From: Patescibacteria group bacterium
GTDB taxonomy: Bacteria; Patescibacteriota; Microgenomatia; UBA12405
Direction of reading: 5' to 3'
Assembly (NCBI GenBank): GCA_018902845.1
Contig: JAHIPV010000007.1
Location: forward strand, 6,989 to 70,988
DNA: 64,000 nucleotides
The notes beneath the pieces are model-generated. The model was not told where the DNA came from. It saw only the letters and a program-made list of their open reading frames with translations, and ran no database searches. Below, one piece after another: positions 6,884 to 42,017 of the stretch. The position numbers and the translations under genes are program-made. Position 1 is the stretch's first letter, and each line of letters starts with the position of its first letter.

Positions 6884-7629
6884 AAATTTTTGACAACAAA
6901 ATATTTGGATTAGAACTAAAAATGTATAAACTTTTTTGGCCCATTGCTTTGGTTGGGATTGTTTTTTTCCTTAGTTTGAAGGTTTTTATATTACCAAAAA
7001 TCGATGAGATAAGTGATTTGAATAAAAAAGTTTCCAGAATGAAAAACGAAGTCGTTGGATTGGAAGAGAAGTTGTTGTATTTGGAGGGGCTTGACGAAGA
7101 TAGTCTTAATAAAAGATTATTATTGCTGGATATTGCTTTACCTAAGAAAAAGGATGTTTATTTTTTGGTAAATGTGATTGATAGTATCGCCAAAAAATAT
7201 CGTTTTAGTACGGATAGTTTTTCTGTTTCCCCCGGGGAACTGAATAGTGATGAAAATGTTGTATCTGGACCCAAACTGGCCAATATTCCCGTGGATGTTG
7301 TTTTGTATGGACCCGAAGACAAGTATTTGGATTTTCTTAAAGGAATAGAGGAATCTTTACCTGTTTTGGTTATTAATCAGTTTGAAATGACGACTACAAA
7401 TAACGTGGTTAAAATAGAATTGAGTGTTTCTACTTTTTTTGTAAATGAAGGGGGCAATGATATTGATTCTTTAGCATTAAAAGATTTTAAGCTGAGTAAA
7501 GAAGAGGAGGAGTTGTTTACTGAGTTGAACAGTTTTGAAGGATTGGAATTGTTTTTGAACAGGGAAAGTTGGCAATCAGAAGAAGAACAGTATGTTAGGT
7601 ATGAGAAGAGGGATCCGTTTCGTCCTTAA
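6880..7629 (+). CDS. pilO: PilO-like type IV pilus assembly protein
   Basis: N-terminal TM, coiled-coil (SDLNKKVSRMKNEVVGLEEKLLYLEG); overlaps pilN stop by 4 nt. Confidence 0.4.
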   Translation: MKIFDNKIFGLELKMYKLFWPIALVGIVFFLSLKVFILPKIDEISDLNKKVSRMKNEVVGLEEKLLYLEGLDEDSLNKRLLLLDIALPKKKDVYFLVNVIDSIAKKYRFSTDSFSVSPGELNSDENVVSGPKLANIPVDVVLYGPEDKYLDFLKGIEESLPVLVINQFEMTTTNNVVKIELSVSTFFVNEGGNDIDSLALKDFKLSKEEEELFTELNSFEGLELFLNRESWQSEEEQYVRYEKRDPFRP

Positions 7630-7861
7630 CTTGAATGTTGAATTTTTGTTGAGGATAAGATGATGTCATCAGTGTTCTTATTGATTTTATTATTTTGCCT
7701 TCTTTACCGATTATTTGACCCAAAAGTTCGCTTGGAGCTATGATTTCAAAAGTTGTAATGCCGGGTATTGGAGTGTCGTTGGTTTTTTTTATTGTAAGTT
7801 TTTTTGAATTTTCTAAAATAGCGTCTAGTAAATAAAAAAGGGTTTTTTGTGGAGAATTCAT
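7595..7861 (-). CDS. KH-domain RNA-binding protein (YlqC/UPF0109-like)
   Basis: GQIIGKEGKIIKSIR KH GXXG motif. The ORF track extends to 7936, but the internal Met (MNSPQKT) avoids overlap with rpsP. Classic rpsP-KH gene order. Confidence 0.55.
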   Translation of the reverse strand: MNSPQKTLFYLLDAILENSKKLTIKKTNDTPIPGITTFEIIAPSELLGQIIGKEGKIIKSIRTLMTSSYPQQKFNIQVKDETDPSSHT

Positions 7862-7862
7862 A

Positions 7863-8198
7863 TTATTTTGTTTCCTCTTTTTTGGCTTCTGTGGTTTTGG
7901 GAATGATTGTTTCCTTGTTTTTGTGGGCGACCGCAAGGGTCGCCCCTACATTCTTTTTTTTCTTGATGGGATACTTTTCTGGATGGAGAAGTTTGTCTAC
8001 GCCTTCTGATATTTGAGCACCTTTTTTAACCCAACTTTCCATTGCTTCTTTGTCTATTTTGAGTGTTTTTGTTTGTGGTGTATAGAAGCCCAGGTCTTCT
8101 AAAAATTTTCCGTTTGCTTTCTTTTGTTTTTCAGTAACCACAATTCTGAAAGTTCGTTGGTGTTTTTTTCCTTTTGGAAATAATCTTATTCTTAGCAT
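7863..8198 (-). CDS. rpsP: 30S ribosomal protein S16 with repeat-derived C-terminal extension
   Basis: MLRIRLFPKGKKHQRTFRIVV...GFYTP matches S16; C-terminal tail contains in-frame copy of 26-nt palindromic repeat (encodes VGATLAVA). Confidence 0.8.
   Translation of the reverse strand: MLRIRLFPKGKKHQRTFRIVVTEKQKKANGKFLEDLGFYTPQTKTLKIDKEAMESWVKKGAQISEGVDKLLHPEKYPIKKKKNVGATLAVAHKNKETIIPKTTEAKKEETK
7925..7950. repeat. repeat family A copy 1 (gggcgaccgcaagggtcgcccctaca; 7-bp stem, GCAAG loop)
   Basis: Identical 26-mer also at 9268-9293, 14111-14136 and 19341-19366; this copy lies inside the rpsP 3' coding region. Confidence 0.9.
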
Positions 8199-8220
8199 GG
8201 TAGGTATTATATCATTTGAA

Positions 8221-8260
8221 ATTTTTAATTTCTAATTTTTAATTTCTAAAATTGTTGAGC
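8221..8260. repeat. AT-rich aatttttaattt-type repeat (family D), intergenic between rpsP and rnc
   Basis: atttttaatttctaatttttaatttctaaaattg. Confidence 0.6.
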
Positions 8261-8268
8261 AAAGGTTT

Positions 8269-8952
8269 TTATATTTTTTCAATAGCAGCGCGGGATGCTG
8301 CCTCTTGGGCTAGTTGTTTTGATCGACCTTTTCCTTTGGCTATTAGTTTTTTGTTTAAATAAACTGCTACATTGAAAATTTTTTGGTGATCTGGACCTGT
8401 TTCTTTGAGAGTTTTGTAGTGAGGTGTTATGTTTTTCTTTTCCTGAGCCAATTCTTGAAAAAGACTTTTTGGATCTTTGTAAACTTTTCGTTGGGCGAAA
8501 GTTTTGATTGTTGGTAATAGAAATTTGTCTAAAAATTTTTCAACGGCTTTGGATCCTTTGTCGAGATAAATAGCACCTATTATGGCTTCAAGACTATCTG
8601 CCAATATTGATTTGTTCGATTGGCCATTGTTTTTTTGTTCTCCATTGCTTAAAAACAGATAATCTCCTATTTTCAGTTTTTTTGCTATATCAGCCAGATT
8701 ATTGGTACAAACTACGAGAGCTCTTAAATTGGTAAGTTTGCCTTCTGGGTAATCAGGAAAGAGATCGAATAATTTTTTGGATGCCCATAGTTCAAGAACT
8801 GCATCGCCCAAGAATTCGTATCGTTCATTTGATTCCAGTTTGATATTTTTATATTCGTTTAAATAGGAGCGATGAATGAGAGCTTTTTGTAATTTGTCAA
8901 TGCTTTTAAATTTAGTTTTTAGTTTTTTTTCTAGTTGTTTTATTTTTTTCAT
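8269..8952 (-). CDS. rnc: ribonuclease III
   Basis: ERYEFLGDAVLEL RNase III signature, dsRBD C-terminus. ORF track start 9027 overlaps nusB by 116 nt; internal Met at 8952 is more likely. Confidence 0.8.
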   Translation of the reverse strand: MKKIKQLEKKLKTKFKSIDKLQKALIHRSYLNEYKNIKLESNERYEFLGDAVLELWASKKLFDLFPDYPEGKLTNLRALVVCTNNLADIAKKLKIGDYLFLSNGEQKNNGQSNKSILADSLEAIIGAIYLDKGSKAVEKFLDKFLLPTIKTFAQRKVYKDPKSLFQELAQEKKNITPHYKTLKETGPDHQKIFNVAVYLNKKLIAKGKGRSKQLAQEAASRAAIEKI

Positions 8953-9421
8953 GTTCCTCCAGAGGCGGACTGCGCGTTCGCTTGTTATTAGGTCTAATTT
9001 TTGACAAGCCGGTGCCAAGGACGCCATTTATAAAAGAAGCAGAGGTTTGAGCACTGAATTCTTTAGCCAGCTCGATGGCTTCATCAATAATAACTTTGGT
9101 TGGTGTTTTGGGTTTGTGAAGTAATTCCCAACAGGCGGTTCTTAGAATTGCCAGATCGACCTTGTTAATTTGCTCCAGTGGCCATTTGGGTGCACTGTCT
9201 TTGATAATTTTATCTATTTTTTTGATATTTTTGATGATGGCAGAGAAATCTTTGTTTTTTCCAAAGCGGGCGACCGCAAGGGTCGCCCCTACATTGGATG
9301 GTTTTGCTCTTTTCGTGGCAGATAAGCTTGTTTGTTTGTTTGGGGTTTGGAATTGCCAGGCAAAAACAGAACGCATGGTTTTTAGTCGGTGGACATGACG
9401 AGGATCTTTTTTGCTTTTCAC
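8912..9421 (-). CDS. nusB: transcription antitermination factor NusB (with in-frame repeat insertions)
   Basis: KVDLAILRTACWELLH...PTKVIIDEAIELAKEFS...SFINGVLG NusB motifs. Repeat A (VGATLAVA) sits in-frame near the N-terminus. Hairpin repeat B (RSPPLE) sits in-frame in the C-terminal tail. Confidence 0.7.
   Translation of the reverse strand: MKSKKDPRHVHRLKTMRSVFAWQFQTPNKQTSLSATKRAKPSNVGATLAVARFGKNKDFSAIIKNIKKIDKIIKDSAPKWPLEQINKVDLAILRTACWELLHKPKTPTKVIIDEAIELAKEFSAQTSASFINGVLGTGLSKIRPNNKRTRSPPLEEHEKNKTTRKKTKN
9268..9293. repeat. repeat family A copy 2 (inside nusB)
   Basis: Exact 26-mer gggcgaccgcaagggtcgcccctaca. Confidence 0.9.
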
Positions 9422-9658
9422 TGTTTACAATTTGGGCACTGAAAGTCGGCCAGCTTGGGCTGTTGACAGTGTTTGCATAAAATTGCGTTTTCCAGTTTTT
9501 TTGAGTTTTTTTGGGAAGCACGCCTTTTGCCTTGTCGGCGGGAACTAGGCCAATGTTTTGGTACTGCTGTCATGAGGGTAGTTTATCAAAAAAAAAGTTT
9601 AAAGTAAAAAGTAAGACTAAGTTGAAATTGTTGAGTGTTATTTTTTACGTTTCTCGTG

Positions 9659-9756
9659 TTGTCATCCTGAGCGTGAGCGAAGGATCTAGTGTTAGCGTTT
9701 AAATACGGCACTTTGTGCCTAGATTCTTCACTTCGTTCAGAATGACGTAGTAGGTC
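9659..9756. repeat. MITE-like element, family C (termini TGTCATCC[T/C]GA ... TCGGGATGACA)
   Basis: ttgtcatcctgagcgtgagcgaaggatc ... cttcgttcagaatgacg...ggtcgggatgacag; terminal inverted repeats read directly; related copies at 14240-14335, 20497-20533 and 24211-24313. Confidence 0.6.
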
Positions 9757-9770
9757 GGGATGACAGTGGT

Positions 9771-10241
9771 TTAATTTGTAATAGTAGAGAGGGTGGGGGT
9801 GGAAGATTGGGTGAGGGTTTTTAAGTCAAAATTTGGGCAATCGTTGATAATGGTTTTGAGGATTTTTTGAGATAGGGATATTAGTTTTGTATTTGATAAG
9901 TTGGCTAGTTTGAGAGATGGGAAACCGTGCTGAAAGGTTGAAAAAATTTCTCCAGGACCACGAGTTTTAAGATCGTACCGGGCTATTTTAAGGTTGTTGC
10001 TATGTTTAGTTATGAAATTGAGTCTATCTAGTGCTTTGGCGTTGTCTGATGAGGTGAAAAGATAACAATAACTTTGTTGTTGTCCCCTACCAATCCTTCC
10101 TCTTAGTTGATGAAGTTGAGCTAAACCAAAACGATCAGCAGATTGAATGATAAGGATAGTGGTGTTGGGAATGTCAATGCCAACTTCAATTATGGGAGTA
10201 GTGACCAGGATGTTTGTTTTGTTTTTTGTGATTTGGGACAA
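9771..10241 (-). pseudogene. duplicated 3' fragment of recG (C-terminal 156 codons), near-identical to 14358-14828
   Basis: Protein ...ILVTTPIIEVGIDIPNTTILIIQSADRFGLAQLHQLRGRIGRGQQQSYCYLF... is ~97% identical to the C-terminus of the 670-aa RecG ORF; nucleotide similarity begins ~15 nt upstream (9756 vs 14343) and ends ~9790+450. Confidence 0.75.
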
Positions 10242-10432
10242 GAAAGCTTTTTGTAAAAAAATTACTAAAAAAAATTGACTCTAATTTAATTTTAGGGTTA
10301 AATCAGTTTAAGAAAAGGAGATGATATTCAACAGTCTCCAGACAATACTTGTGTTAATCAGAAAAAGATTGTATAATTTCAATATGTCACTTAAAGGTCA
10401 TTGTACCGATCTCTAATTAGAATTAATAAGTT

Positions 10433-11611
10433 TTAACTTGTTTTGGTTGTTGAGGGGGGTGGTGTTTTGTTTGCGAGTTTGTTGATTTTGTATTTTTTAG
10501 GTGTTTTTCCTTTTTTGTCAATAAGTTTTAGGTAAAATGTTTTTAATTTATTTGGAAGAATTGGAATTATTTCTTTTTCAATTAAAGGCATTAGATTGCA
10601 GGTGATTGGGTCTGGTTTTTTGTAATCTTCCAAATAGTAATAAGAATCAACTCTACATCCGGCATTGCAAAGTTTAAGATAGCGACAATTTCTACATTCT
10701 TTAATATCTGATATTTTGAGATTATAAAATTTATGTTGATATTTTTTATTAATAGCTTTTTTCAAACTACCTTCTTTTAGATAGTTTGACATTGGTAGGT
10801 CAAAACTAGGACAAAAGACCATATCTCCGTTAGGTCTTAAAGGAAAACTTCCTGACCTGTAGCTACATGGATGAGAGTTTTTATTAAAAGTAATAAGGTT
10901 GTTTGGTGTAATTTCTGATTTATATATGTTATAGAGTTCAAACTCAAAGGTTGGCTTTTTTTTCAAGTAGTCTTTTAAAATTTCTTTAAAAATTTTAATA
11001 AAGTCGTTAAAATTTGGTAATTGAAACTCTTTATAGTTTTTTAAATATCTTCCAGTAATAAAAGGCAAATCTACTCTCCACCTGTCAATTCTTAGTTTTT
11101 TTAATAAATTATAAAGTTTAGGCATTTCTTGCAGGTTTTTTTCTGTGACTTCGGTATTAATGACTACTGTAAAATTAGCAGTTTTAAGCCATTTTATACT
11201 TTGAATAATTTTCTTGTGACTGCTTCCGACACGTGTTTTATTGTGCCATTTGAAACCGTCTAGAGTGATTTTGATTTCTTTTATTTGTGGATATTCACTT
11301 AACTTTTTGATAAGTTTTTTTGTTAATAACTTTCCATTTGAAAGGATTTCAACTTTTTTTCCTTTGCAAAAATTAATAATTTCAAAAATATCTTCTCTTA
11401 GGAATGGTTCGCCACCAGAAAAAGCAAATTCTTTACATCCCATTTTTATCGATTCGGTTATTAGTCTCTTGATATCTTTGGTTTTCATTTCTTTGGAAAT
11501 TTGTTTTGAGTTATTGAACTGAGCGTTATAGCAATAGGCACATCTTAAATTGCACTTTCCAGTAATTTCTAGATGGATTCTCCTGACTTTGTTTGTTTTT
11601 AAGTTGGTCAT
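10433..11611 (-). CDS. radical SAM enzyme with C-terminal SPASM-like Cys cluster domain
   Basis: GKCNLRCAYCYN (CX3CX2C); C-terminal Cys cluster (CPSFD...CRNCRYLKLCNAGCR) typical of SPASM/twitch auxiliary cluster domains of peptide-modifying rSAMs. Confidence 0.7.
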   Translation of the reverse strand: MTNLKTNKVRRIHLEITGKCNLRCAYCYNAQFNNSKQISKEMKTKDIKRLITESIKMGCKEFAFSGGEPFLREDIFEIINFCKGKKVEILSNGKLLTKKLIKKLSEYPQIKEIKITLDGFKWHNKTRVGSSHKKIIQSIKWLKTANFTVVINTEVTEKNLQEMPKLYNLLKKLRIDRWRVDLPFITGRYLKNYKEFQLPNFNDFIKIFKEILKDYLKKKPTFEFELYNIYKSEITPNNLITFNKNSHPCSYRSGSFPLRPNGDMVFCPSFDLPMSNYLKEGSLKKAINKKYQHKFYNLKISDIKECRNCRYLKLCNAGCRVDSYYYLEDYKKPDPITCNLMPLIEKEIIPILPNKLKTFYLKLIDKKGKTPKKYKINKLANKTPPPSTTKTS

Positions 11612-11623
11612 TTTTGCATTTAA

Positions 11624-12388
11624 TTAATTTCTAAATATTTGTTTAACAAAACATAACCTTTTTTTTGAAATTAACTTTTTTTTAATGTTGGTTGTGATTT
11701 CTTGGTTGGAAGAATAAATAGTTCCGATCTTTTGCTCAGGATAAGAGACAAGAGCTGCGCAGGGAAAAACATCACCTTGGGAGTTGATAGACAAAAAAGT
11801 TCCGAATTTACAAATAGTTTGGTTATCATATCGAATTTTTACATCACTTTCTCGAAATCTTTCTTTGATAATTTTACCAAGTTGTATTATCTCTTCTTTC
11901 GAAAGTTGAGATTTGGTCATGATATTAAGAGCGTTTCCTGAAGGAGTTAACTGACTAATCCAAAAATTCTTAACTCCCATTTTGGCGAAAAATGATATCA
12001 TGTTTGGAATTTCTCGATGATTCATTTTCATTGCTGTGATGTTTATTCCGAAAGGAAGTGTTTTGAGAAATTGTTTAATATTGTTTAATACTTTTGGGAA
12101 AAGTTTTTCTGTTGTTGTAAACCAATCGAACTTTTTTTCGTTGATTGTGTGAATACTTACTTTGAAAAGTGCCAAATTTACTTTTTTTAGGAGATCAAGT
12201 ATCCCGTGGTTGTCGATACTACCGTTAGTTACCATTTCTACCTCAATATTTTTTCTGTCGATCATTTGTTCTAATGCAAAAGCGATGTTGTCACAAATAA
12301 AAGGTTCTCCACCTACAATATTTATTCTTTTTACTCCCATTTCGTCTATAAATTTTCCAACTACTTGAGAAATGTTTTTCTTCGACAT
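11624..12388 (-). CDS. radical SAM family protein (annotated ATG probably internal; CX3CX2C encoded in-frame just upstream)
   Basis: VKRINIVGGEPF motif, partial C-terminal Cys motif. Translating 12389-12470 in the same frame gives ...SANNSCNFRCKHCYVIKNKHQE without a stop but with no ATG, so the true start is likely non-ATG or slightly upstream. Confidence 0.5.
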   Translation of the reverse strand: MSKKNISQVVGKFIDEMGVKRINIVGGEPFICDNIAFALEQMIDRKNIEVEMVTNGSIDNHGILDLLKKVNLALFKVSIHTINEKKFDWFTTTEKLFPKVLNNIKQFLKTLPFGINITAMKMNHREIPNMISFFAKMGVKNFWISQLTPSGNALNIMTKSQLSKEEIIQLGKIIKERFRESDVKIRYDNQTICKFGTFLSINSQGDVFPCAALVSYPEQKIGTIYSSNQEITTNIKKKLISKKRLCFVKQIFRN

Positions 12389-12493
12389 TTCTTGATGTTT
12401 ATTTTTTATAACATAGCAATGTTTACAGCGAAAATTACACGAGTTATTTGCTGATAAAAAAGTATAAGGGTAAACTTTGTTGGTGTAATTTAT

Positions 12494-13924: not shown

Positions 13925-14110
13925 TTTTTTGTTTATTAAAAAACAGATTGATTTTATCAATTTTATTAATGTTTGTGAATATAGAGTTTTGCTGACCCAC
14001 CTACACATGATACTGTTTGAAATCAATTGCTTGAGAATGAGATAAAAACTCTAGTAATATTACATGAACCAGGAAAAAGAAAAATCCCAAATTATTGTCA
14101 TTGTGTCTGC

Positions 14111-14136
14111 GGGCGACCGCAAGGGTCGCCCCTACA
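14111..14136. repeat. repeat family A copy 3
   Basis: Exact 26-mer; followed by aaagagctcgcaatgaca as in the 19.2-kb MITE. Confidence 0.9.
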
Positions 14137-14239
14137 AAAGAGCTCGCAATGACAGAAAGGTGTTATCCTGCTTAGCGGGACGAAGTGAAGCGGAGGAATC
14201 TTCTGACTTTTGAGTTTGGAAAATAGATTGGGTGGTTAG

Positions 14240-14335
14240 GAGATCCCTCCGCTACGGTCGGGATGACAAATACTTCGGTCGGGATGACAAATACTTCGGT
14301 CGGGATGACAAATACTTCGGTGGGGATGACAAAAA
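14240..14335. repeat. family C MITE arm plus 21-nt tandem repeat (ggtcgggatgacaaatacttc x3 + degenerate 4th)
   Basis: Direct reading of 14258-14335; preceded by ggagatccctccgctacggtcgggatgaca arm. Confidence 0.75.
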
Positions 14336-14357
14336 ATTGCCGGAATGATGGTTTGAT

Positions 14358-16370: not shown

Positions 16371-16510
16371 TGAATTATGTTATCATTTGGTAATGAGGTT
16401 GTTTGGTAAAAGGATTAGAAAAAAGACAATTAAAAAAGGGATTTTGTTTTTTGCAACCATACTTTTATTATTGTCTGGCTTAGTGCCTTTTTTGAGTACT
16501 TTGTTTTAAT

Positions 16511-19171: not shown

Positions 19172-19202
19172 GTTTGAGTTAATGTTTTATAGATTCTAGA
19201 AA

Positions 19203-19380
19203 TTGTTGTCATTGCGAGGAAATCACGTTTAAATTTCTTAATTTATTACGTGACGACGTGGCAATCCCGTAGGGATTTTAATCACGTTTTTTACATTTCC
19301 AACTGGGATCCTCCAGAGGTGGACACGTTGCCATGGAAATGGGCGACCGCAAGGGTCGCCCCTACAAAAGGCAATGACAA
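19203..19380. mobile_element. ~178-bp MITE-like element with terminal inverted repeats ttgtcattgc...gcaatgacaa, containing repeat A and a hairpin-B variant
   Basis: TIRs read directly; internal gggcgaccgcaagggtcgcccctaca (19341-19366) and cctccagaggtggac (19310-19324). Confidence 0.6.
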
Positions 19381-19455
19381 TTAGTATTATCTGTAGGTGG
19401 GTCAGGGATTTGTGTTATTGACATGTTTGTTTTTGTACATTATGATGATGTATAG

Positions 19456-19773: not shown

Positions 19774-20017
19774 AAACGAAAAAGAAGAAAATGAGTTTTG
19801 GCTAAATCATGATACTACCGAGTATTTTGATATGTCCAGACCGATGAAAATGTTTTTTCCAAATTTGAAACCAAGTACAAAAAAAATAACTTTACGTTTA
19901 CCAACTAACTTGTTGTATAAAATAAAAACTTTAGCTAATGAAAGAGATGTTCCATACCAATCTTTTATGAAAGTGTTGCTTAATGAAAAAGTAAGTAGGC
20001 TGATTTTAGGCGCTTAG
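19742..20017 (+). CDS. brnA: BrnA-family antitoxin
   Basis: Overlaps brnT by 32 nt; 91 aa; C-terminal RHH-like region (KITLRLPTNLLYKIKTLANERDVPYQSFMKVLL). Confidence 0.55.
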   Translation: MKKIKKIPRFRNEKEENEFWLNHDTTEYFDMSRPMKMFFPNLKPSTKKITLRLPTNLLYKIKTLANERDVPYQSFMKVLLNEKVSRLILGA

Positions 20018-21957
20018 TTAAGATTAAAAGATTTGAGGTGGAGGGATTTGGCGGATTTGGCATCGATGTTGTAATAGGAAATGCGGAAGGTGTAGCGGTA
20101 GAGGTTTGATGCTTTGTCGTGGTAAATGTCCGTAATTGTAATCTTATACAGGTTTTTGCCGATTATTTTTGAATATTTTTTTAATAGTTTTTGTGGGTTT
20201 TGTTTTTCTTTTAGCTCTATATTAGCGTCAAGAGTAATAATTTGGGAAGTTAATTCTATAGTGGAAGTGGTGGGTGGTGTATGGGAGATGGGGATAAGAG
20301 GGATATCTTTAATTTTTAATTTTTCTAAATTGAATTCAACACAATAACCGTTTTTGATTGGAAGTATGGTGTGTTTTGGTGCTGAAAGTTTTAGCTGTTG
20401 AAATAGTGATTTGATATCTTTTTTTAGTTGGTTTTTGTTTTGATGAAAAATTCCTAAGGAGTAGTTTTCTTGATAATTATTTAAATTAGTTGGTTGGTCA
20501 GGAGATCCCTCCACTTCGGTCGGGATGACAGAGAAGACTTTGCCGATTTCGAAGAATTGAGGGTTTGGTACTTTGTATTTGGCATATTGTTTTGATTGTT
20601 TTGTAAGGGAGGCGATAATTGATTGGCGTAAAATTGGGTATTTTGAATTAATGCTATTTTGGGTGTGGATGGCGTTGTTTGGATTAGGAATGTAATCGTT
20701 TTTTTTGATTAACGGCCAGGAACGGATTTCGTCATAACCCAAATTAATTAAAATATTTTGAATTGATTGTATCAGGTAGAGTATTTTTGGGGTAATATCG
20801 GGTAGTTTTTTACTTGAGATTGGTTTATTTGTTGGAATTTTATCGTAGCCAAAGTAACGAATGACCTCTTCTATAAGATCTTCTTCTATGTTGATGTCTT
20901 TGCGGATGGATGGAGGGGTGATGAGATAACTGTGGGATTCTTCGCTGTGCTCAGAATGACGCTGTGTGGTTCGCTTGTGTTTGTATGTGGTGATTTGGCA
21001 ACCAAGTTTTTTTAGAATATCTAAACTAAAATCTGATGAAATATTTACTCCGGCATATTGACTGACTTTTTTTGGATTAAATTTTATTTCGATTGACTTT
21101 GGTTTTTGAGGATAATATTCGTATAAGTTGCTGATGATTTGACCGTTACAGTTTTTAAGAATTAATTGCGTTAAATGATTGAAAGCTAATGGAATGAGTT
21201 TTGTATCTAAAAATTTATCTAATCTAATACTGGCCTCTGTGATTGTTTTTAGGGTTCTGGAGTCTTTGCGTACCCTTAAACGATTATAAACAGCCATTTC
21301 GATTATTATTTCTTCTGTAAAAAGATCAATAGCGCAGGCTTGTCCTCCCAAAAAAGATAAGGACAGGGCTTTTTTGGGATTATTTACCATTAAGGTATTA
21401 GTTTTTAATTCGAGTTTGGTGCCGTCTAATGTAACAAATTGCTTATATTTGTTGTTGTTTAGTTCCCAAATTAATTCATCTCCTGATTTTTTGGTGTCAA
21501 AAGCATGGCAAGGAATGCCATAAAGGATCATGATGTAGTTGGTTAGATTGACAATAGTATTGATGGGGTTTATATCATGCAGTTTTAGAAATTTTTTGAG
21601 CCAGTTGGGTGAAGAAGAATTTTTTAGTTTAGAAATGCGGATGGCCTGGATGCGGTTAACATTTTTTTGGGTGGTTACTTTGATTGGAAGTTGGTAATTG
21701 GAGTTAATTTTTGGCAGAGCAATTTTATCTAAGTTTAATGGGCCGTAAAGGACTGATAAATCGTTTGCTATGCCGTAGTAACCCAGACACTCTCCTCTGT
21801 TTTGACGGATTTCCAGGCCTATTATTTTTTCATTGTCTTTGTATTCGAGTGAATCATTAAAGTGTCCCAGCATGGTTAGTTTATCGGCTATTTTTTTAAC
21901 CGAATGATTTTTTAGAGCCGGTAGTAATTTTTGTAGATGAGAGTAAATTATTTTCAT
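20014..21957 (-). CDS. pheT: phenylalanyl-tRNA synthetase beta subunit (with in-frame repeat-derived insertions)
   Basis: Follows pheS with 1-nt overlap; B3/4 and FDX-ACB-like C-terminus. Family C repeat copy at 20497-20533 encodes SVIPTEVEGSP in-frame. A second repeat-like segment at ~20935-21000 encodes RTTQRHSEHSEESH. Confidence 0.75.
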   Translation of the reverse strand: MKIIYSHLQKLLPALKNHSVKKIADKLTMLGHFNDSLEYKDNEKIIGLEIRQNRGECLGYYGIANDLSVLYGPLNLDKIALPKINSNYQLPIKVTTQKNVNRIQAIRISKLKNSSSPNWLKKFLKLHDINPINTIVNLTNYIMILYGIPCHAFDTKKSGDELIWELNNNKYKQFVTLDGTKLELKTNTLMVNNPKKALSLSFLGGQACAIDLFTEEIIIEMAVYNRLRVRKDSRTLKTITEASIRLDKFLDTKLIPLAFNHLTQLILKNCNGQIISNLYEYYPQKPKSIEIKFNPKKVSQYAGVNISSDFSLDILKKLGCQITTYKHKRTTQRHSEHSEESHSYLITPPSIRKDINIEEDLIEEVIRYFGYDKIPTNKPISSKKLPDITPKILYLIQSIQNILINLGYDEIRSWPLIKKNDYIPNPNNAIHTQNSINSKYPILRQSIIASLTKQSKQYAKYKVPNPQFFEIGKVFSVIPTEVEGSPDQPTNLNNYQENYSLGIFHQNKNQLKKDIKSLFQQLKLSAPKHTILPIKNGYCVEFNLEKLKIKDIPLIPISHTPPTTSTIELTSQIITLDANIELKEKQNPQKLLKKYSKIIGKNLYKITITDIYHDKASNLYRYTFRISYYNIDAKSAKSLHLKSFNLN

Positions 21958-23355: not shown

Positions 23356-23358
23356 AAT

Positions 23359-23568: not shown

Positions 23569-24187
23569 TATGTTGTTTTATTTGCTCATTTTGAGGTGAT
23601 TGTGTAGGTATTTGTTTCTCCAGAGGCGGACTTCGTTGGCGCTCGTTTTTGGTTGGTGTTAAGGTCAGAAATAAATTTTTGCCTGTCAATTTTGTATTTC
23701 CTTCTGGAGTGGAAATATCTTCAAGATCTTTTTGGAATCTTTCAACCAATTTGTAACCAAATTCTTTTTTAGTTATTTGGCGACCCAGGAATTTTACACA
23801 TAATTTAACTTTATTTCCAGTTGATAAAAATTTTCTGGCCTTTTTGATTCTGGTTTCGTAATCACTTTGGCCTATGAAGGGTTTCATGTGGATTTCTTTC
23901 AGTTCTCCCCCTCTTGATCCTTTTTTGCTGTTTTTTTCTTTTTTGGCTTCCTGATATTTAAATTTAGCGAAATCAATGAGTTTTACTACCGGAGGTTTGG
24001 CTTTTGAGGCAATTTCGACTAGGTCAAGATTTGTTTCCTGCGATTTTTGTCTGGCATCATATAGAGATAAAATACCTATTTGTTTGTTGTTTTCATCAAT
24101 TAAACGAATTTGCGGAGCGGTTATGTATTGATTAATTTTATAAAATTTCTTTTTATAGTATTTGTATCTTGATTTTTGTTTTTTCAA
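23537..24187 (-). CDS. infC: translation initiation factor IF-3 (C-terminal tail contains in-frame hairpin-B repeat)
   Basis: IRLIDENNKQIGILS...LDLVEIASKAKPPVVKLIDFAKFKYQ IF3 motifs; probable non-ATG start as usual for infC; tail ...ERQRSPPLEK encoded by ctccagaggcggact (23628-23642). Confidence 0.8.
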   Translation of the reverse strand: MKKQKSRYKYYKKKFYKINQYITAPQIRLIDENNKQIGILSLYDARQKSQETNLDLVEIASKAKPPVVKLIDFAKFKYQEAKKEKNSKKGSRGGELKEIHMKPFIGQSDYETRIKKARKFLSTGNKVKLCVKFLGRQITKKEFGYKLVERFQKDLEDISTPEGNTKLTGKNLFLTLTPTKNERQRSPPLEKQIPTQSPQNEQIKQHNEKEKQKIKN

Positions 24188-24210
24188 TTAGTCTTTAAAT
24201 TAATAATTAC

Positions 24211-24313
24211 TGTCATTTCGACCGAGTGAAATGAGTGGAGAAATCTCTTGACCTTTTTTATTTTTTAATAAATTGAGTGGTTATGAGATCCCTCGACTTC
24301 GTTCGGGATGACA
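24211..24313. repeat. MITE-like element family C (ctgtcatttcgaccgag ... gagatccctcgacttcgttcgggatgacac)
   Basis: Terminal inverted repeats read directly between infC start and thrS stop. Confidence 0.6.
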
Positions 24314-24319
24314 CTTTCT

Positions 24320-30930: not shown

Positions 30931-30992
30931 AAAGGTTCGCCAACTGGCGAATCAGTTGGTAGATCCGCCAGTTGGCGGACTCTTAAGCGATT
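30931..30992 (+). repeat. pseudo-tRNA-Lys 5' fragment (D-arm-like + hairpin + anticodon loop), broken off exactly at the GIY-YIG start codon
   Basis: ttcgccaactggcgaatcagttggtagatccgccagttggcggactcttaagcgat has the same unit as the two copies at 31401-31505. Confidence 0.7.
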
Positions 30993-31250
30993 ATGTATGT
31001 ATATGTAATAAAAAACAAAAAAACAGATAAAATATATATTGGCCAAACAAACAATTTAAAAAATAGACTTAAAAGACACAACGGGCATTTAAAAAACAAA
31101 GTAACAAGCTATACTTCGAAAAATAAAGGAGAATGGCAATTAGTATACAAAGAAGAATATGATACTAGAAAAAAAGCTATAAAAAGTGAGAAACAATTAA
31201 AATCTTACCAAGGCAGACAATATATAAAAAGAACAATCATGGGCCGTTAG
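30993..31250 (+). CDS. small GIY-YIG nuclease-domain protein (COG2827-like)
   Basis: YVYVIKNKKTDKIYIGQTNNLKNRLKRHN is a canonical GIY-X10-YIG...R..H motif; 85 aa; stop codon overlaps 5' end of tRNA-Lys. Confidence 0.7.
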   Translation: MYVYVIKNKKTDKIYIGQTNNLKNRLKRHNGHLKNKVTSYTSKNKGEWQLVYKEEYDTRKKAIKSEKQLKSYQGRQYIKRTIMGR

Positions 31251-31316
31251 CTCAGCTGGTAGAGCAATCGCCTCTTAAGCGATCGGTCAGAGGTTCGAAT
31301 CCTCTACGGCCCACCA
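31241..31316 (+). tRNA. tRNA-Lys (anticodon CTT), CCA encoded
   Basis: gggccgttagctcagctggtagagcaatcgcctCTTaagcgatcggtcagaggttcgaatcctctacggcccacca. Confidence 0.85.
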
Positions 31317-31505
31317 CTCAGTTGGTAGATCCGCCAGCTGGCGGACTCTTAAGCGATCGGTCAGAGGTTTCCGCCGGTAGGCGGACAGGCTACCTCTACG
31401 TTCGCCAACTGGCGAATCAGTTGGTAGATCCGCCAGCTGGCGGACTCTTAAGCGATCGGTCAGAGGTTTCCGCCGGTAGGCGGACAGGCTACCTCTACGG
31501 TCCAC
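31317..31505 (+). repeat. two tandem pseudo-tRNA-Lys units in which anticodon-stem 5' side and T-loop are replaced by TCCGCC-N4-GGCGGA hairpins
   Basis: Unit (ttcgccaactggcgaat)cagttggtagatccgccagctggcggactcttaagcgatcggtcagaggtttccgccggtaggcggacaggctacctctacg x2; compare the tRNA-Lys sequence. Confidence 0.75.
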
Positions 31506-35202: not shown

Positions 35203-36421
35203 TTTGTAATTTTTCCATAAGGATTGAATAAAAACGTAAGTTGTGTATAGTAGCTAATCTTCCGGCTGTCATATCTTTTATTTTAAAAAGATGGGCAAGA
35301 TAAGAACGAGTATATTTTGTGCATAACAAACAATCGCATGCAGTACTGACTGGCTTGGTATCTCTGTAGTACTTTTCTTTATTAGGAACAAAATAAGAAT
35401 AAAATTTTTCTTGCCTGATATTTATTTTGTTAATTGAATCGGCGTTATAAACATAAAGCCTTTTGTGTCTGGCGTCCCGAGTTGGCAATACGCAATCAAA
35501 GATTTGCCAACCAAGATCAACACAATTAACAATTTCATCCGGTTTGCCTATACCAAGACCGTAAAGCAAGTAGTTTTTTGGGCTGTATTTGGCAATAATT
35601 TTTGCTATATCGTAATTAAATTGCCCGTCTTTATCTAGAGGCCAACCGCCATATCCAAGACCATCAAAACCAATTTTAACTAGTTTTTGAGTGCATTCTT
35701 TTCTCAAGTCTAAATATTCCCCTCCCTGGACTACTCCGAGCAGGTATGGACGATTTTTTTTGTTTAATTTTTGCTGTTTACAGATTTTTTCGAATTCTTT
35801 TTTGCAAATTTTAGCCCAAAGAATGGTGCGATCAACTGTTTCTTTGGCTTTTTGATAATTGGCTGTAGGTGTGGTGAAATCGTCTAGTACTACCACCATA
35901 TCGGTTTTTAGGGACATTTGGATTTGGATGGATTTTTGTGGAGTAAAGAGCGTGTCAGTATTTTTTGTTTGTTTGAATTTTACCCCTTTGTCTGTAACTG
36001 AATTTTCTCCGCCAAATTTTTTGGCCAAAGACATGATTTGAAAACCACCCGAATCAGAGATTATTCCGTGAGACCACGACATGAAATTACTTATGCCTTT
36101 GTGTAGTTTTATTGTTTGGATACCGGGATTATTGTGAAGGTGGTAAGTATTGACCAGTATTCCCGGTGTGTGAGTAGATTCAATATCTTTTGAATCCAGA
36201 GTTTTTAGAACAGCACGAGTGGCATCCGGAAAAAATACGGGAAGAAGAATTTTTTTGCTTTTAATAGTTTTGAAGTATTTTTTTCTGGTGGGTTTGGGTG
36301 GCATTTGTATATTATAATATGTAGACTTGAGATTAGCCGGGGTGGTCCGCCACAGGCGGATAAACTTCATTGGTATGTAAAATTTTAATTTATGTTTTAT
36401 GTATATGTACTTAAAAGTCAA
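35189..36421 (-). CDS. tgt: queuine tRNA-ribosyltransferase (tRNA-guanine transglycosylase)
   Basis: VVQGGEYLDLR, LYGLGIGKPDEIV, Zn site CDCLLCTKYTRSYLAHL. Confidence 0.8.
   Translation of the reverse strand: MTFKYIYIKHKLKFYIPMKFIRLWRTTPANLKSTYYNIQMPPKPTRKKYFKTIKSKKILLPVFFPDATRAVLKTLDSKDIESTHTPGILVNTYHLHNNPGIQTIKLHKGISNFMSWSHGIISDSGGFQIMSLAKKFGGENSVTDKGVKFKQTKNTDTLFTPQKSIQIQMSLKTDMVVVLDDFTTPTANYQKAKETVDRTILWAKICKKEFEKICKQQKLNKKNRPYLLGVVQGGEYLDLRKECTQKLVKIGFDGLGYGGWPLDKDGQFNYDIAKIIAKYSPKNYLLYGLGIGKPDEIVNCVDLGWQIFDCVLPTRDARHKRLYVYNADSINKINIRQEKFYSYFVPNKEKYYRDTKPVSTACDCLLCTKYTRSYLAHLFKIKDMTAGRLATIHNLRFYSILMEKLQNESR
36336..36360 (+). repeat. 5' fragment of tRNA-Leu (gccggggtgg) fused to hairpin tccgccacaggcgga, immediately upstream of second GIY-YIG gene
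   Basis: gccggggtgg is identical to the first 10 nt of the tRNA-Leu(TAA) gene 300 bp downstream. Confidence 0.6.
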
Positions 36422-36634
36422 AAAGTAAAGAAATATTATAAGGGTTTGACTGGTGATTTAGACAAACGATTGAGGCAACATTATAATGGTAAATCACTGA
36501 CAACGAAAAGATATTTACCATTAGAATTAGTATTTGTTCAGATATGTGCAAATAGGTTAGAAGCTGGAAAACTTGAAAAGTATTTAAAATCTGGTATAGG
36601 TCGTGAAATAATGGGAGAAATTGTTGTAAAATAA
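36392..36634 (+). CDS. small GIY-YIG nuclease-domain protein (second copy, COG2827-like)
   Basis: FYVYVLKS...KYYKGLTGDLDKRLRQHYNG GIY-YIG motif; 80 aa; immediately followed by tRNA-Leu. Confidence 0.65.
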   Translation: MFYVYVLKSQKVKKYYKGLTGDLDKRLRQHYNGKSLTTKRYLPLELVFVQICANRLEAGKLEKYLKSGIGREIMGEIVVK

Positions 36635-36643
36635 AGATGTTTT

Positions 36644-36727
36644 GCCGGGGTGGCGGAATTGGTATACGCGCAAGACTTAAAATCTTGTGTCCCTTGGGAC
36701 GTGTGGGTTCGACTCCCACCTTCGGCA
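36644..36727 (+). tRNA. tRNA-Leu (anticodon TAA), long variable arm
   Basis: gccggggtggcggaattggtatacgcgcaagactTAAaatcttgtgtcccttgggacgtgtgggttcgactcccaccttcggca. Confidence 0.75.
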
Positions 36728-36730
36728 CAT

Positions 36731-36804
36731 CGGGGATTGGCGCAATTGGCTAGCGCGCACGGTTTGGGACCGTGAGGCTGCAGGTTCGAATCCTGTATCC
36801 CCGA
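36731..36804 (+). tRNA. tRNA-Pro (anticodon TGG)
   Basis: cggggattggcgcaattggctagcgcgcacggttTGGgaccgtgaggctgcaggttcgaatcctgtatccccga. Confidence 0.7.
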
Positions 36805-36805
36805 C

Positions 36806-36960
36806 TGATCCGCTGAAGGCGGAAAATCATAAATCTAAATTTTCAAATCCTAAATTCTAATATCTAAATTCTAAATAAATTCAAATATCTAAATTCAAAA
36901 TTCAAAATAAGTCCAAACATTAAAATTGAAACTTAGGATAAATTAGAAATTATAAAAATT
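36806..36960. repeat. AT-rich low-complexity spacer with degenerate tctaaatt / ttcaaaat repeats
   Basis: Direct reading between tRNA-Pro and tRNA-Gly. Confidence 0.6.
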
Positions 36961-36979
36961 TAGTTAAGAATTGTTTTAA

Positions 36980-37050
36980 GCGGGATTAGTTGAGCGGTTC
37001 AACATCACCCTTCCAAGGTGAAAAGATGGGTTCGACTCCCATATCCCGCT
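36980..37050 (+). tRNA. tRNA-Gly (anticodon TCC)
   Basis: gcgggattagttgagcggttcaacatcacccttTCCaaggtgaaaagatgggttcgactcccatatcccgct. Confidence 0.7.
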
Positions 37051-37061
37051 CTGATTTTTGA

Positions 37062-37144
37062 GCCAGGGTGCTGGAATTGGTAGACAGGCGTCGCTCAGAA
37101 CGGCGTGTCCTTTGGGCGTGTGGGTTCGACTCCCACCCTTGGCA
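37062..37144 (+). tRNA. tRNA-Leu (anticodon CAG), long variable arm
   Basis: gccagggtgctggaattggtagacaggcgtcgctCAGaacggcgtgtcctttgggcgtgtgggttcgactcccacccttggca. Confidence 0.7.
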
Positions 37145-37146
37145 CA

Positions 37147-37195
37147 GTGAAAAATTTTTCCGCCAGAGGCGGACTAAAGAATTTTTAATTTGTAC
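37147..37195 (+). repeat. ~48-bp post-tRNA repeat containing hairpin tccgccagaggcgga (copy 1)
   Basis: gtgaaaaatttttccgccagaggcggactaaagaatttttaatttgt is nearly identical to 37599-37648. Confidence 0.7.
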
Positions 37196-37228
37196 TTTTG
37201 TTTTTAAACATTGTATAATTAGGATTAA

Positions 37229-37471
37229 ATGATAGTTTCAGTTCAAGAATTGACTGTAGGTCCAAATTCATTAACACGGGAAGGCTTGGAAAGAAAGATT
37301 CAATGGGTAGTGGAAGCAAGAAAAGTTGGTGTAGATGTTGTATTGCCTTCGATTAAGGATATGCCCATTGAAGCCTTGGTGCTTGCAGAAAGAGCGGGGG
37401 TTTATGGACCAGGCCAAAGAATGGTAGCTTTGAGGAGGTTGGTAAATGATGAGGATGCGATGGAAAAATAG
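37229..37471 (+). CDS. hypothetical small protein (higher-GC, inside tRNA cluster)
   Basis: ORF only. Confidence 0.25.
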   Translation: MIVSVQELTVGPNSLTREGLERKIQWVVEARKVGVDVVLPSIKDMPIEALVLAERAGVYGPGQRMVALRRLVNDEDAMEK

Positions 37472-37524
37472 TAAAATAATTTTAGAGAGAATTTTTTGTG
37501 TGGATTTTGTATAATATATGTTAA

Positions 37525-37598
37525 GCCGAAGTAGCCAAGATGGTCACGGCACTGGTCTGAAAAACCTGGGATGTTGGTTCGAGTCCAACCTTCGGCAC
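37525..37598 (+). tRNA. tRNA, probably Phe (anticodon GAA) with one U-U mismatch in anticodon stem
   Basis: gccgaagtagccaagatggtcacggcactggtctGAAaaacctgggatgttggttcgagtccaaccttcggca; good acceptor and T-arms, imperfect anticodon stem. Confidence 0.45.
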
Positions 37599-37648
37599 GC
37601 TGAAAATTTTTTCCGTCAAAGGCGGACTAAAGAATTTTTAATTTGTGT
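37599..37648 (+). repeat. ~48-bp post-tRNA repeat containing hairpin tccgtcaaaggcgga (copy 2)
   Basis: ctgaaaattttttccgtcaaaggcggactaaagaatttttaatttgt. Confidence 0.7.
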
Positions 37649-40245: not shown

Positions 40246-42017
40246 TTTTTTTGTTTAACTAGTATTATACCGCCTAAGGTAAGTAGACCAATAATAATGA
40301 TTACGAAGCTCGTGGTGTTTTGGTGGTGTTGTGGATATGGAACTATTTGGGTTTGTTTTTCTTGACCTTGTATATTTAAGGTGAATTCGAGATTTTTATT
40401 TTTTGGTAATAAAGAAAGTATGGGATTAATTTTTGGAAGGTTAAACTCTAGACGGGAGAAAGGAGGCATGATGTCTATTTTTTGAGTCCAGTTTTGTTTT
40501 TTGATGGATAAATCGATGTTTTTTGTAGACGAAGAATTATTGTTTTGAATAATAACTTTTGTTCCGCCAAAGGCGGACTGTGCTGACGCTTGTTTGCTTT
40601 TACTTAAAAAAATGATTGGATCAGTATTTTCCGGATGAATGCGATGGTTGGCAAAATCGACTTTAATGCTTTTTTGTTGAGTTGAATTTTTGTATGATCC
40701 CGGAGGAGCGGGATACTGACTGTTGTGTCCGTGGATAACGAAGACAATGTGGTTTAGGTCGGTGTTAGAAAAATAGTCTATTCCTTCGGTTGTTTTTTCC
40801 CAGGTTGGATCGATTGTGATCCACGCATTTTTTTCTTTGTCCCAGAATTGAGGCCAGGCATGAAGAATATCGGTATTGATATTGACCGGTTTTAGTTCCG
40901 GTTTGTTGGTAAAAGCGTAGCCCTCTATTTCTTGGGCAGGGATTGTTTTGTTTCGGGCTAAAGTTATGAAAAGATCGGTAAATTCAGTGCAGAGAGAATT
41001 TGCTGGATTGATGAGTGCTGTTAGAGCGCCTTTTCTTTTGGCTTGATCGATTTGTTGGTAATCGTAATCAAGAGTGTTAACAACATATTGGTAAATGTCT
41101 TTGGCTGAGTGAAGATTGGAGTTTATCTTTTGGATATTAGGATCATTTACCGGCCAAAATTTTTGTTCTACGGTGAGTTTTTGAAAGTCAGGCGGATTGT
41201 CAAAAGAATAATCTATTGGGTGTACTTCAGCTTGACCGGTGACAATGATTTCTTTTTGAGTGTTGCTGTTTAATTGATATTCTGCCAGCCAGTTTCCGTC
41301 CAGGTCTGCGACAATGTTTTCCGGTGAAGGATCGATTTTAGTGATGATTATATTTTGTGTATTGGTATCAGGAGGAATAGGTATGGAGGTTCTTATGTTA
41401 TCTTGGGCTTTATTTTCAAGAAAAAATTTCAATTCAAAATCGAAAATTTGCGTGTTTCCAAACGCCATGGTAATTTTTTGTTTTTGTTTATTGTTGAAAA
41501 AAATTTCTTTGTAATTTTTTTGTTGTTTTATTTCATTTTTGACAGAACAAAAGACAAGATTGCCAAAATCATCCGGTATTTTTAGAGAGATTTGACTATT
41601 TGTTTCGTTTTGTTGTGGTAGATTAATTTCCCAAAGTTGTCCTTTTTGTTGGGCCAGACCAGGGATGGAATAGTTTATATTGAAGTTGGTTTTTTTGTTT
41701 TTTCCTGAAGTAGGATTATTAAATTTTATTTTTATAGTTGTGTTTTCTGCTGTTTTATCGGTACTTTGAATAATATCACCGTATGGATCTGATCCTTTTA
41801 TGTTTTCTATGTTTTGGCCAAAGATTTCCAGTAGATATTCCTTGGGATAGATGTTGGAGAAATTGTTAGTGATACTGATTTGGTGTATTACCTTGGCGTT
41901 GCCATGTTCGTCGATGGAGTAGGAAACTTTTTGGGTGGTGTTAAATTCATTATCAGTAGATAAAACTAAAATTGGATTTAGGAGAAAGAGAAGAAAGATA
42001 AGGATAAGTTTTTTCAT
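40242..42017 (-). CDS. secreted transglutaminase-like (Cys-His-Asp) domain protein with C-terminal TM anchor
   Basis: SLCTEFTDLFITLARNKTIPAQEIEGYAF...HAWPQFWD...IDPTW matches transglutaminase-like core; signal peptide; in-frame hairpin-B repeat at 40562-40580 (encodes ASAQSAFGG). Confidence 0.55.
   Translation of the reverse strand: MKKLILIFLLFLLNPILVLSTDNEFNTTQKVSYSIDEHGNAKVIHQISITNNFSNIYPKEYLLEIFGQNIENIKGSDPYGDIIQSTDKTAENTTIKIKFNNPTSGKNKKTNFNINYSIPGLAQQKGQLWEINLPQQNETNSQISLKIPDDFGNLVFCSVKNEIKQQKNYKEIFFNNKQKQKITMAFGNTQIFDFELKFFLENKAQDNIRTSIPIPPDTNTQNIIITKIDPSPENIVADLDGNWLAEYQLNSNTQKEIIVTGQAEVHPIDYSFDNPPDFQKLTVEQKFWPVNDPNIQKINSNLHSAKDIYQYVVNTLDYDYQQIDQAKRKGALTALINPANSLCTEFTDLFITLARNKTIPAQEIEGYAFTNKPELKPVNINTDILHAWPQFWDKEKNAWITIDPTWEKTTEGIDYFSNTDLNHIVFVIHGHNSQYPAPPGSYKNSTQQKSIKVDFANHRIHPENTDPIIFLSKSKQASAQSAFGGTKVIIQNNNSSSTKNIDLSIKKQNWTQKIDIMPPFSRLEFNLPKINPILSLLPKNKNLEFTLNIQGQEKQTQIVPYPQHHQNTTSFVIIIIGLLTLGGIILVKQKK

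Follow-up and report, generated by a model that had tools for sequence, protein, structure and literature searches.

Probable mobile hairpin repeats of three families lie in frame within housekeeping genes of a Patescibacteria bacterium

We analysed a 64,000-nt stretch of DNA (the window, to which all coordinates refer) from a Patescibacteria group bacterium of the lineage UBA12405 (JAHIPV010000007.1, positions 6,989–70,988), in which short hairpin-forming repeats are read through within rpsP, nusB, infC, pheT and a transglutaminase-like gene. These repeats probably constitute three small, non-autonomous mobile families of the repetitive extragenic palindromic (REP) type, spreading now or recently in an AT-rich genome of the Candidate Phyla Radiation (CPR). 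They are termed A (a 26-mer of GTAG type), B with B', and C (TGTC/CGTC type). The GC content of the window is ~35%, and its named best protein matches come from Candidatus Shapirobacteria, Microgenomates and 'Patescibacteria group' metagenome-assembled genomes; we take the host to be a groundwater, Shapirobacteria-like CPR bacterium with a tiny genome. Syntenic contigs of related organisms, L001 and L002, were compared at the DNA level with the rpsP–rnc–nusB region, and a further syntenic relative, L124, was used for pheT, infC and the infC–thrS spacer. A strain contig (L130, 93.8% nucleotide identity overall), whose end falls within one of the repeat elements, and a contig of GCA_018817965.1 (L125, 97.5% identity) were also included. 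The GCA_018817965.1 and GCA_018895885.1 contigs belong to the same species as the window or to a sister species.

The family A 26-mer (GGGCGACCGCAAGGGTCGCCCCTACA) occurs in four exact copies, at 7925, 9268, 14111 and 19341, all in a single orientation, where 100 shuffles gave an expectation of 0.00. A first-pass annotation of the sequence had located these copies correctly and given them a 7-bp stem; folding yields a GC-rich stem of 8 bp with a 5-nt loop (−10.3 kcal/mol, z = −4.2 to −4.4). Family B (TCCGCC-N3/4-GGCGGA) has eight perfect copies and the B' core (AGTCCGCCTYTGGMGR) has four (8956, 23617, 37160 and 40564), with 0 expected in each case, and the family C head (TGTCATNNNGANCG) is found seven times against 0.08 expected. 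The term 'palindromic', which the annotation applied to the repeats, suits family A and describes the genic B' and C copies only loosely, since these fold weakly (z = −0.2 to −0.8).

Two family A copies are translated in silico within conserved genes (Table 1). The S16 protein reads ..KKKNVGATLAVAHKNKE.. through the repeat and NusB reads ..PSNVGATLAVARFGK.. in its interior, in agreement with the VGATLAVA peptides first noted there. The 45-nt rpsP insertion is missing in L001, where the flanks align in frame, and the 150 best S16 cluster representatives all lack a VGATLAVA-like peptide. The 75-nt interior insertion of nusB, consisting of A copy 2 (9268–9293) and 49 nt of unique sequence, is missing in L001 and L002 DNA, and none of 18 NusB orthologues, two of which are 78% identical, has the corresponding 25-aa block. 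The NusB tail reads ..KRTRSPPLEE..; the RSPPLEE block is missing in the two closest NusB relatives, the tail being variable among the others, and the B' gap measures 33 nt against L001 and 24 nt against L002. Nucleotide alignment of the rpsP–nusB region with L001 and L002 displays three clean indels with well-aligned flanks. In the AlphaFold2 model of NusB, the predicted local distance difference test score is below 50 at residues 28–49 (the insert) and 148–168 (the tail) and above 90 in the helical core. The region of rnc, listed among the affected loci, is touched in that the nusB-tail B' copy directly precedes the likely start of rnc. The rnc gene contains no interruption, and its calls in L001 and L003 are 227–232 aa. 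All three genes of the flagged interval (7863–9421) are on the minus strand.

The remaining genic insertions involve families B' and C. IF3 reads ..ERQRSPPLEK.. through its 63-nt insertion, which is missing in L124 and kept in strain L130. The peptide RSPPLE had indeed been noticed in both NusB and IF3; its IF3 copy, placed earlier at 23628–23642, is at 23618–23632. The transglutaminase-like protein reads ..QASAQSAFGG.., matching the ASAQSAFGG segment already described. Its 12-aa insertion is shared by the window and P0241 (94% identity). Of the other orthologues, P0242 (79%) and three more have none of the 12 residues, and in the remaining six, 6 residues are missing. PheT reads ..SVIPTEVEGSPDQP.. 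through the repeat. The in-frame family C sequence in pheT was likewise part of the first-pass annotation, which missed a second insertion at ~20935–20990, referred to here as site (i). Most PheT orthologues are without the inserted segments, and at site (i) 17 of 17 more distant orthologues are gapped over a 15-residue stretch. Site (i) opens with CGTCATTCTGAG, a CGTC-type tag, and its hairpin is preceded by a 27-nt module that L130 lacks. The string ACAAGCGAAC within this module also begins the B' sequence ACAAGCGAACGCGCAG (8975–8990), so one short 5' module precedes two hairpin types.

The seven genic indels (75, 45, 33, 63, 30 net, 45 and 36 nt) are all multiples of 3, an outcome with a chance probability of ~5e-4. 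The insertion points are A-rich, lysine-rich tails or loops of variable length among orthologues; as with Rickettsia palindromic elements (RPEs), these positions are compatible with the fold. All six frames of the 30-nt B' unit are free of stop codons, family A is open in five of six and the C half element in four; the complete 108-nt C pair, with stops in all six frames, is seen solely between genes. Two circumstances would have undone the annotation's reading, namely that orthologues carry the same segments or that the open reading frames (ORFs) are mis-called extensions. The orthologues and the empty DNA sites speak for insertion, and the ORFs are not mis-called, because the sequence downstream of the inserts is homologous to, and in frame with, that of relatives. 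From these alignments, we classify every site named as a lineage-specific in-frame insertion.

Clean empty sites are seen at the DNA level among the syntenic contigs L001, L002, L124 and L130. In the infC–thrS spacer, the window contains the 108-nt C pair, L130 a clean empty site, and L124, at a distance of 17 nt, a clean 30-nt B' unit. No target-site duplication is present at the C-pair junction (AATAAA-(108 nt)-ATTATT in the window versus AATAAA-TCA-ATTATT in L130). Site (ii) of pheT is empty in L124 and is occupied by a 30-nt B' unit (ACAAGCGAATGCGCAGTCCGCCTCTGGAGG) in L125 and by a family C half element in the window. Three CGTC-type variants with covarying stems occupy pheT site (i): one in the window and L125, one in L130 and one in L124. 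Family A copy 4 (19341–19366) is also present in L125. Because relatives have empty sites or another repeat family at the same site, we regard the repeats as mobile, now or in the recent past. Permissive sites seem to have been hit independently in other CPR lineages. The tail of the S16 representative P0363 (55% identity) contains QAKSASGG, which is the B' unit in another frame and therefore an independent hit in another lineage. PheT P0193 (51% identity) has RHSESSSES at the position of pheT site (i), and the S16 tail of P0362 reads SPLDKLGESPLDRGDS.

On the minus strand, family A consists of T, GTAG and a GGGCGACC-CTTGC-GGTCGCCC stem-loop. The unpaired GTAG beside a GC-rich stem-loop is the defining feature of GTAG REPs, and the four exact copies in 64 kb correspond to the dispersed identical copies of that class. 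GTAG REPs and their doublets (REPINs) are mobilised by REP-associated tyrosine transposases (RAYTs) (Nunvar 2010, PMC2817692; Bertels and Rainey 2011, PMC3116915; Di Nocera 2013, PMC3733652). A scan for the family A hairpin with any loop, in one genome per species, listed more than 119 loci. Among the matches listed, the hairpin comes from more than 10 phyla, often several times per 8 kb; Chloroflexota, Clostridia, several proteobacterial classes, Planctomycetota, Acidobacteriota and Bacteroidota are represented, among others, and the GCAAG loop of the window is the commonest. Patescibacteria do not appear among these matches, but no weight attaches to their absence from the list. It is also found in 61 IMG/VR stretches. 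In near-identical A hairpins (L005–L123, L147–L224), GCAAG and ACAAG loops are dominant. A RAYT search of 119 family A loci, seeded with E. coli rayT, gave a RAYT-like ORF in five (L042, L072, L089, L095 and L114). Pfam Y1_Tnp was matched by four of the five ORFs, one of them just under the Pfam cut-off, and A hairpins lie within ~400 nt of, or inside, all five. In L095, A hairpins bracket the RAYT-like ORF in inverted orientation, resembling a REPtron. These features assign family A to the GTAG-tagged REPs, the same hairpin being associated with RAYT in other phyla. A further GC-rich hairpin followed by CTTAC (GGGGACGAGGCACGCCTCGCCCTTAC), oriented like family A, is present at 34872–34903 in the linker of a MiaB-like radical SAM gene (34120–35202) and may be another REP-like insertion.

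Family C carries the tag of a different class. CGTC REPs are defined by a CGTC or TGTC tag, a stem of 8–9 bp whose first pairs are A-T/T-A, a loop of 4–5 nt and head-to-head dimers, and their superfamily includes Rickettsia conorii RPE-4 (CGTC-4) and RPE-6 (CGTC-1) (PMC3733652). The TGTCATNNNGANCG heads have the TGTC variant of the tag. The stem always starts with AT (ATCCC/GGGAT, ATCCT/AGGAT or ATTCT/AGAAT, covarying), and inverted pairs with TGTC heads outermost occur at 24210–24317 and 14165–14268. By its tag, stem start and head-to-head pairs, family C fits the published definition of the superfamily to which RPE-4 and RPE-6 belong (PMC3733652). The RPE-like behaviour claimed in the annotation accordingly extends from in-frame insertion to the tag and the stem start of the family. 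Tandem 21-nt units at 14252–14335, adjoining a C pair, correspond to the head half of the element (CTTCGGTCGGGATGACAAATA). The C core is found in 17 IMG/VR stretches of 45–66% GC, and C cores (TGTCATCCCGAGCGNAGYCGAGGGATC) together with A hairpins are spread over many phyla and IMG/VR contigs of 45–72% GC; by this distribution, A and C are classed as cosmopolitan REP types and not as lineage-specific ones. A 300-nt, 95%-identical copy of the recG 3' end was also observed (9767–10066 and 14354–14653), yielding a truncated helicase ORF at 9771–10241. Family C elements lie no more than ~100 nt from either copy, a proximity suggestive of repeat-associated rearrangement.

Family B/B' appears to be a lineage-restricted hairpin unit of 16–30 nt that matches neither the GTAG nor the CGTC tag. 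The restriction is judged from a metagenome scan with the B' pattern, which returned only 9 contigs, 6 of them from one groundwater sample. In AT-rich metagenome contigs, eight of eight B' copies lie within ORFs of 150–413 aa, on the coding strand and in three different frames.

We propose that insertions would land anywhere and that only some would survive in essential genes. The survivors would be those that keep the frame, bring no stop in the frame used, and fall in A- or lysine-rich tails or variable surface loops, where the extra 8–25 residues would form a disordered appendage. For family A, the most economical model has a RAYT transposase (HUH Y1) work in trans on DNA single strands, a mode that would entail no target duplication and a uniform orientation relative to the GC-skewed strand. 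On the G-rich strand, the A copies (4/4) and B copies (10/11) are oriented one way regardless of gene direction (pooled 14/15, binomial p ~0.001). The GC skew is very strong and varies little across 1–64000 (+0.1 to +0.4 for the majority of 2-kb windows) regardless of gene direction, and housekeeping genes are mostly on the C-rich strand.

Several observations weigh against this proposal. The 64-kb window yielded neither a RAYT/Y1 transposase nor another gene that could plausibly mobilise these repeats (a hidden Markov model built from the RAYT hits gave nothing at E < 1), so the mobilising enzyme is inferred. Unlike REPs, which are mostly extragenic and commonly inverted dimers, the family A copies are singletons in four of four cases, with no REPIN doublets, and intragenic in two of four. 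The orientation bias comes from few independent copies, and the genic B' and C copies have the weak folds described above. Several events look more like replacements than simple insertions; at pheT site (ii), 57 nt stand in place of ~27 nt (net +30 nt). The additional 49 nt in the nusB insert match nothing else in the window or the fetched loci. Finally, translation of the inserts is deduced from frame preservation.

Events of the replacement type, such as those at pheT site (ii), in the pseudo-tRNA units and in the 49 nt of nusB, leave room for a spread of the repeats through homologous or template-switch repair (ectopic gene conversion) with no transposase, the breaks possibly being made by nucleases such as the two small GIY-YIG enzymes. 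We consider this unlikely. In its favour, unrelated blocks of equal length occupy pheT site (ii) in genomes of 97.5% identity, three variants are found at site (i), the ACAAGCGAAC module stands ahead of two different hairpins, and a transposase for these repeats was not found in the window. B hairpins also adjoin both GIY-YIG/tRNA cassettes (Table 1). In the tRNA-Lys locus, where the GIY-YIG ORF (85 aa, 30993–31250) is followed by the intact tRNA-Lys(CTT) (31241–31316), each tandem 99-nt pseudo-tRNA-Lys unit has three B-type hairpins. These TYCGCC-N4-GGCGRA hairpins stand in for the 5' strand of the acceptor/D region, the 5' strand of the anticodon stem, and the T-loop, a substitution of stem strands that counts in favour of repair. 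The copy number of the 99-nt unit varies among strains, L136 and the window differing by one. The tRNA-Leu cassette, similarly built and with a GIY-YIG ORF of 80 aa (36392–36634), looks like a free-standing homing-type insertion in a tRNA gene, for which T4 SegB is the nearest known analogy (PMC2330249). Against the repair route, the 108-nt C pair and, in L124 and L125, the 30-nt B' unit are clean unit-length insertions between intact flanks, the family A hairpin is associated with RAYT elsewhere, and the GIY-YIG proteins of 80–85 aa are without a DNA-binding domain and without known cleavage specificity. The GIY-YIG link comes from the two window cassettes, because no GIY-YIG ORF is near repeats in any other fetched locus. 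A specific RAYT-independent version, in which GIY-YIG nucleases would make the breaks and repair would copy in stop-free B' modules or CGTC hairpins, seems to us improbable. It would account for the replacement events, the reuse of one loop by different families and the replacement of pseudo-tRNA stems by hairpins. If true, mini-elements would have a further, new way of propagating, and ultra-small genomes would possess a built-in source of diversity in protein loops.

It is very doubtful that the hairpins are host-selected signals, such as terminators, determinants of mRNA stability or processing, donors of ribosome-binding sites or protein-binding sites, with a regulatory role for their position in gene tails. 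The B' copy in the nusB tail does give a Shine-Dalgarno-like GGAGG motif 5 nt upstream of the rnc ATG, which relatives lack; three tRNA genes are directly followed by a B hairpin (36809, 37159 and 37612); and REPs have been reported in mRNA stability and as gyrase sites (PMC3733652). Yet no A or B copy has the hairpin and T-tract of an intrinsic terminator, and none was flagged by a terminator scan of 7000–25000. A whole-window Rfam search at gathering thresholds detected tRNAs and nothing else, and for 7500–24500 there was no match even at E ≤ 1. Near-identical strains have empty sites or a different family, B' is read in three frames in unrelated proteins, and stems are degraded in genic copies, which makes a regulatory-only reading weak. 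That the segments are ancestral and lost in relatives, or are artefacts of assembly or ORF calling, is effectively refuted: the S16, IF3 and NusB tails do vary in length among CPR orthologues, but an identical 26-mer lies in unrelated genes and spacers, the segments are missing from all or nearly all orthologues including outgroups, the insertions recur in independent JGI, ENA, NCBI and Logan assemblies, and the downstream sequence remains in frame.

Table 1 Coordinates of the repeats, the genes that hold them and associated loci in the window
Feature	Position	Strand	Details
rpsP (ribosomal protein S16)	7863..8198	-	111 aa; Pfam Ribosomal_S16 over aa 10-64; L001 orthologue 97 aa
S16 tail insertion	7913..7957	-	45 nt; A copy 1 at 7925-7950; encodes ..NVGATLAVAHKNK..
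rnc (RNase III)	8269..8954	-	uninterrupted; likely start ATG 8954; Pfam Ribonuclease_3 and dsrm
nusB	8912..9421	-	169 aa vs 119-135 aa in most orthologues; Pfam NusB only at aa 59-136
B' element in nusB tail	8958..8990	-	AACAAGCGAACGCGCAGTCCGCCTCTGGAGG; ..NKRTRSPPLEE..; ends 5 nt before rnc ATG
nusB interior insertion	9260..9338	-	75 nt; blocks 9260-9319 and 9324-9338, between helix 1 and core
Solo family C element	9658..9689	+	TGTCATCCTGAGCGTGAGCGAAGGATCTAG; intergenic; stem ATCCT/AGGAT covaries with ATCCC/GGGAT of other copies
Family A copy 3	14111-14136 within 14098..14157		intergenic; nested between inverted TGTCATTGTG and CGCAATGACA heads
C inverted pair and tandem array	14165..14335		pair 14165-14268, then array of four 21-nt C-head copies, 14252-14335
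Composite intergenic element	19205..19380		TTGTCATTGCGAG head, degenerate B copy 19309-19324, A copy 4 19341-19366, GCAATGACAA head
pheT	20014..21957	-	647 aa vs ~596-610 aa in many orthologues; Pfam B3_4, B5, tRNA_synthFbeta; two insertions
pheT site (ii)	20476..20533	-	family C half element TGTCATCCCGACCGAAGTGGAGGGATCTCCTGACCAACCAACTAATTT; encodes SVIPTEVEGSPDQPTNLNN
pheT site (i)	20935..20990 (approx.)	-	CGTC-type element CGTCATTCTGAGCACAGCGAAGAATCC; encodes ..TYKHKRTTQRHSEHSEES.. (RHSEHSEES)
27-nt module preceding pheT site (i) hairpin	20963-20989		contains ACAAGCGAAC
infC (IF3) C-terminal tail insertion	23584..23646	-	63 nt; B' core 23617-23632; encodes ..NERQRSPPLEKQ..
Complete C inverted pair	24210..24317		108 nt; TGTCAT...ATGACA termini; infC-thrS spacer
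tRNA-Lys locus	30935..31502	+	half pseudo-tRNA with two hairpins, GIY-YIG ORF, intact tRNA-Lys, two 99-nt pseudo-tRNA units
tRNA-Leu cassette	36331..37627	+	first 10 nt of tRNA-Leu, B hairpin 36346, GIY-YIG ORF, intact tRNA-Leu(TAA) at 36644
Transglutaminase-like gene	40242-42017	-	36-nt B' insertion 40563..40598, the unit being read here as SKQASAQSAFGG, in another frame
Junction-spanning peptides of inserts			e.g. KKNVGATLAVAHK, NKRTRSPPLEEHEK

Other features of the window lie apart from the three families. A large serine recombinase ORF (Resolvase, Recombinase, Zn_ribbon_recom) is found at 46882–48550 beside tRNA-Glu, bracketed by 46-nt inverted repeats (46941–46986 and 48499–48550), and probably represents an integrated element. 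At 48676 there is a perfect hairpin of 30 nt with an 11-bp stem (TGGGGGCGGTGACCGCATCCACCGCCCCCA), which recurs, inverted with its flanks, at 55461. These copies (48676–55490) bracket an HpaII-type restriction-modification system with Vsr (48804–51236) and two large ORFs.

If the preferred reading of mobile REP-type repeats is right, a streamlined, very small CPR genome still hosts at least three active hairpin repeat families, and core translation and transcription genes (S16, NusB, IF3 and the PheRS beta subunit) acquire additional peptide loops and tails from the repeats. A repeat origin can then lie behind unusual C-terminal extensions and lineage-specific insertions in CPR proteins, and VGATLAVA, RSPPLEE and RHSE..SES would be markers of repeat origin, not functional motifs. 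The cosmopolitan nature of families A and C raises the question of their arrival route into an episymbiotic lineage. Public samples contain filled and empty alleles, through which REP turnover can be studied. The annotation had judged the presence of such repeats here to be apparently unreported. Within the literature searched, this holds for CPR/Patescibacteria, for which no report of palindromic, REP or miniature inverted-repeat transposable element (MITE) repeats of this kind was found, and no CPR phylum was included in the 2013 REP survey (PMC3733652). It does not hold in general: a 2013 study described REPs inside genes of several species, among them tRNA synthetase genes, and intragenic GTAG REPs are documented, for example, in O. 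terrae (PMC3733652).

Among known systems, GTAG REPs resemble family A in its 26-nt unit, its dispersed identical copies and the nesting of its intergenic copies in palindromes, as in some GTAG families. Family A differs in residing as singletons in a CPR host of 35% GC, half of them in essential genes, with no RAYT in 64 kb. Family C shares with CGTC REPs the tag, the A-T/T-A stem start, the head-to-head pairs and the in-frame presence in genes, including one for a tRNA synthetase. The L124 copy, CGTC-ATTCTGAA-CTTG-TTCAGAAT-CTCA, has exactly the published form, with a perfect 8-bp stem and a 4-nt loop, and no dedicated transposase is known for that class either. In contrast, most C copies of the window have a 5-bp outer stem, a 12-nt interior and a weak fold, with CTCC or CCCA tails instead of CCA. 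MITEs such as Correia/NEMIS, ERIC and RUP are similar to the C pair in its imperfect terminal inverted repeats of ~30 nt, its AT-rich spacer and its presence/absence polymorphism. We rejected a MITE assignment of the pair: the terminal inverted repeats are there, the target-site duplication is not, we found no related insertion sequence sharing these ends, and the half elements and units of 26–30 nt are too short. The mobile GC clusters of yeast mitochondria, GC-rich palindromic mini-elements in an AT-rich genome, some of them in frame in coding sequence, offer an analogy only, given their organellar eukaryotic context and unrelated sequences. Rickettsia RPEs, which a 2024 MITE review treats as an extreme case of in-frame insertion, are likewise palindromic repeats inserted in frame into unrelated housekeeping genes of a small genome, adding peptide segments at fold-tolerant positions. 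The genic units described here are shorter (26–57 nt versus ~100–150 nt for RPE-1), form GC-rich islands in an AT-rich genome of a different phylum, and belong to three co-resident families that reuse the same sites. In-frame repeat insertion has been known since 2000 in Rickettsia and since 2013 in other bacteria.

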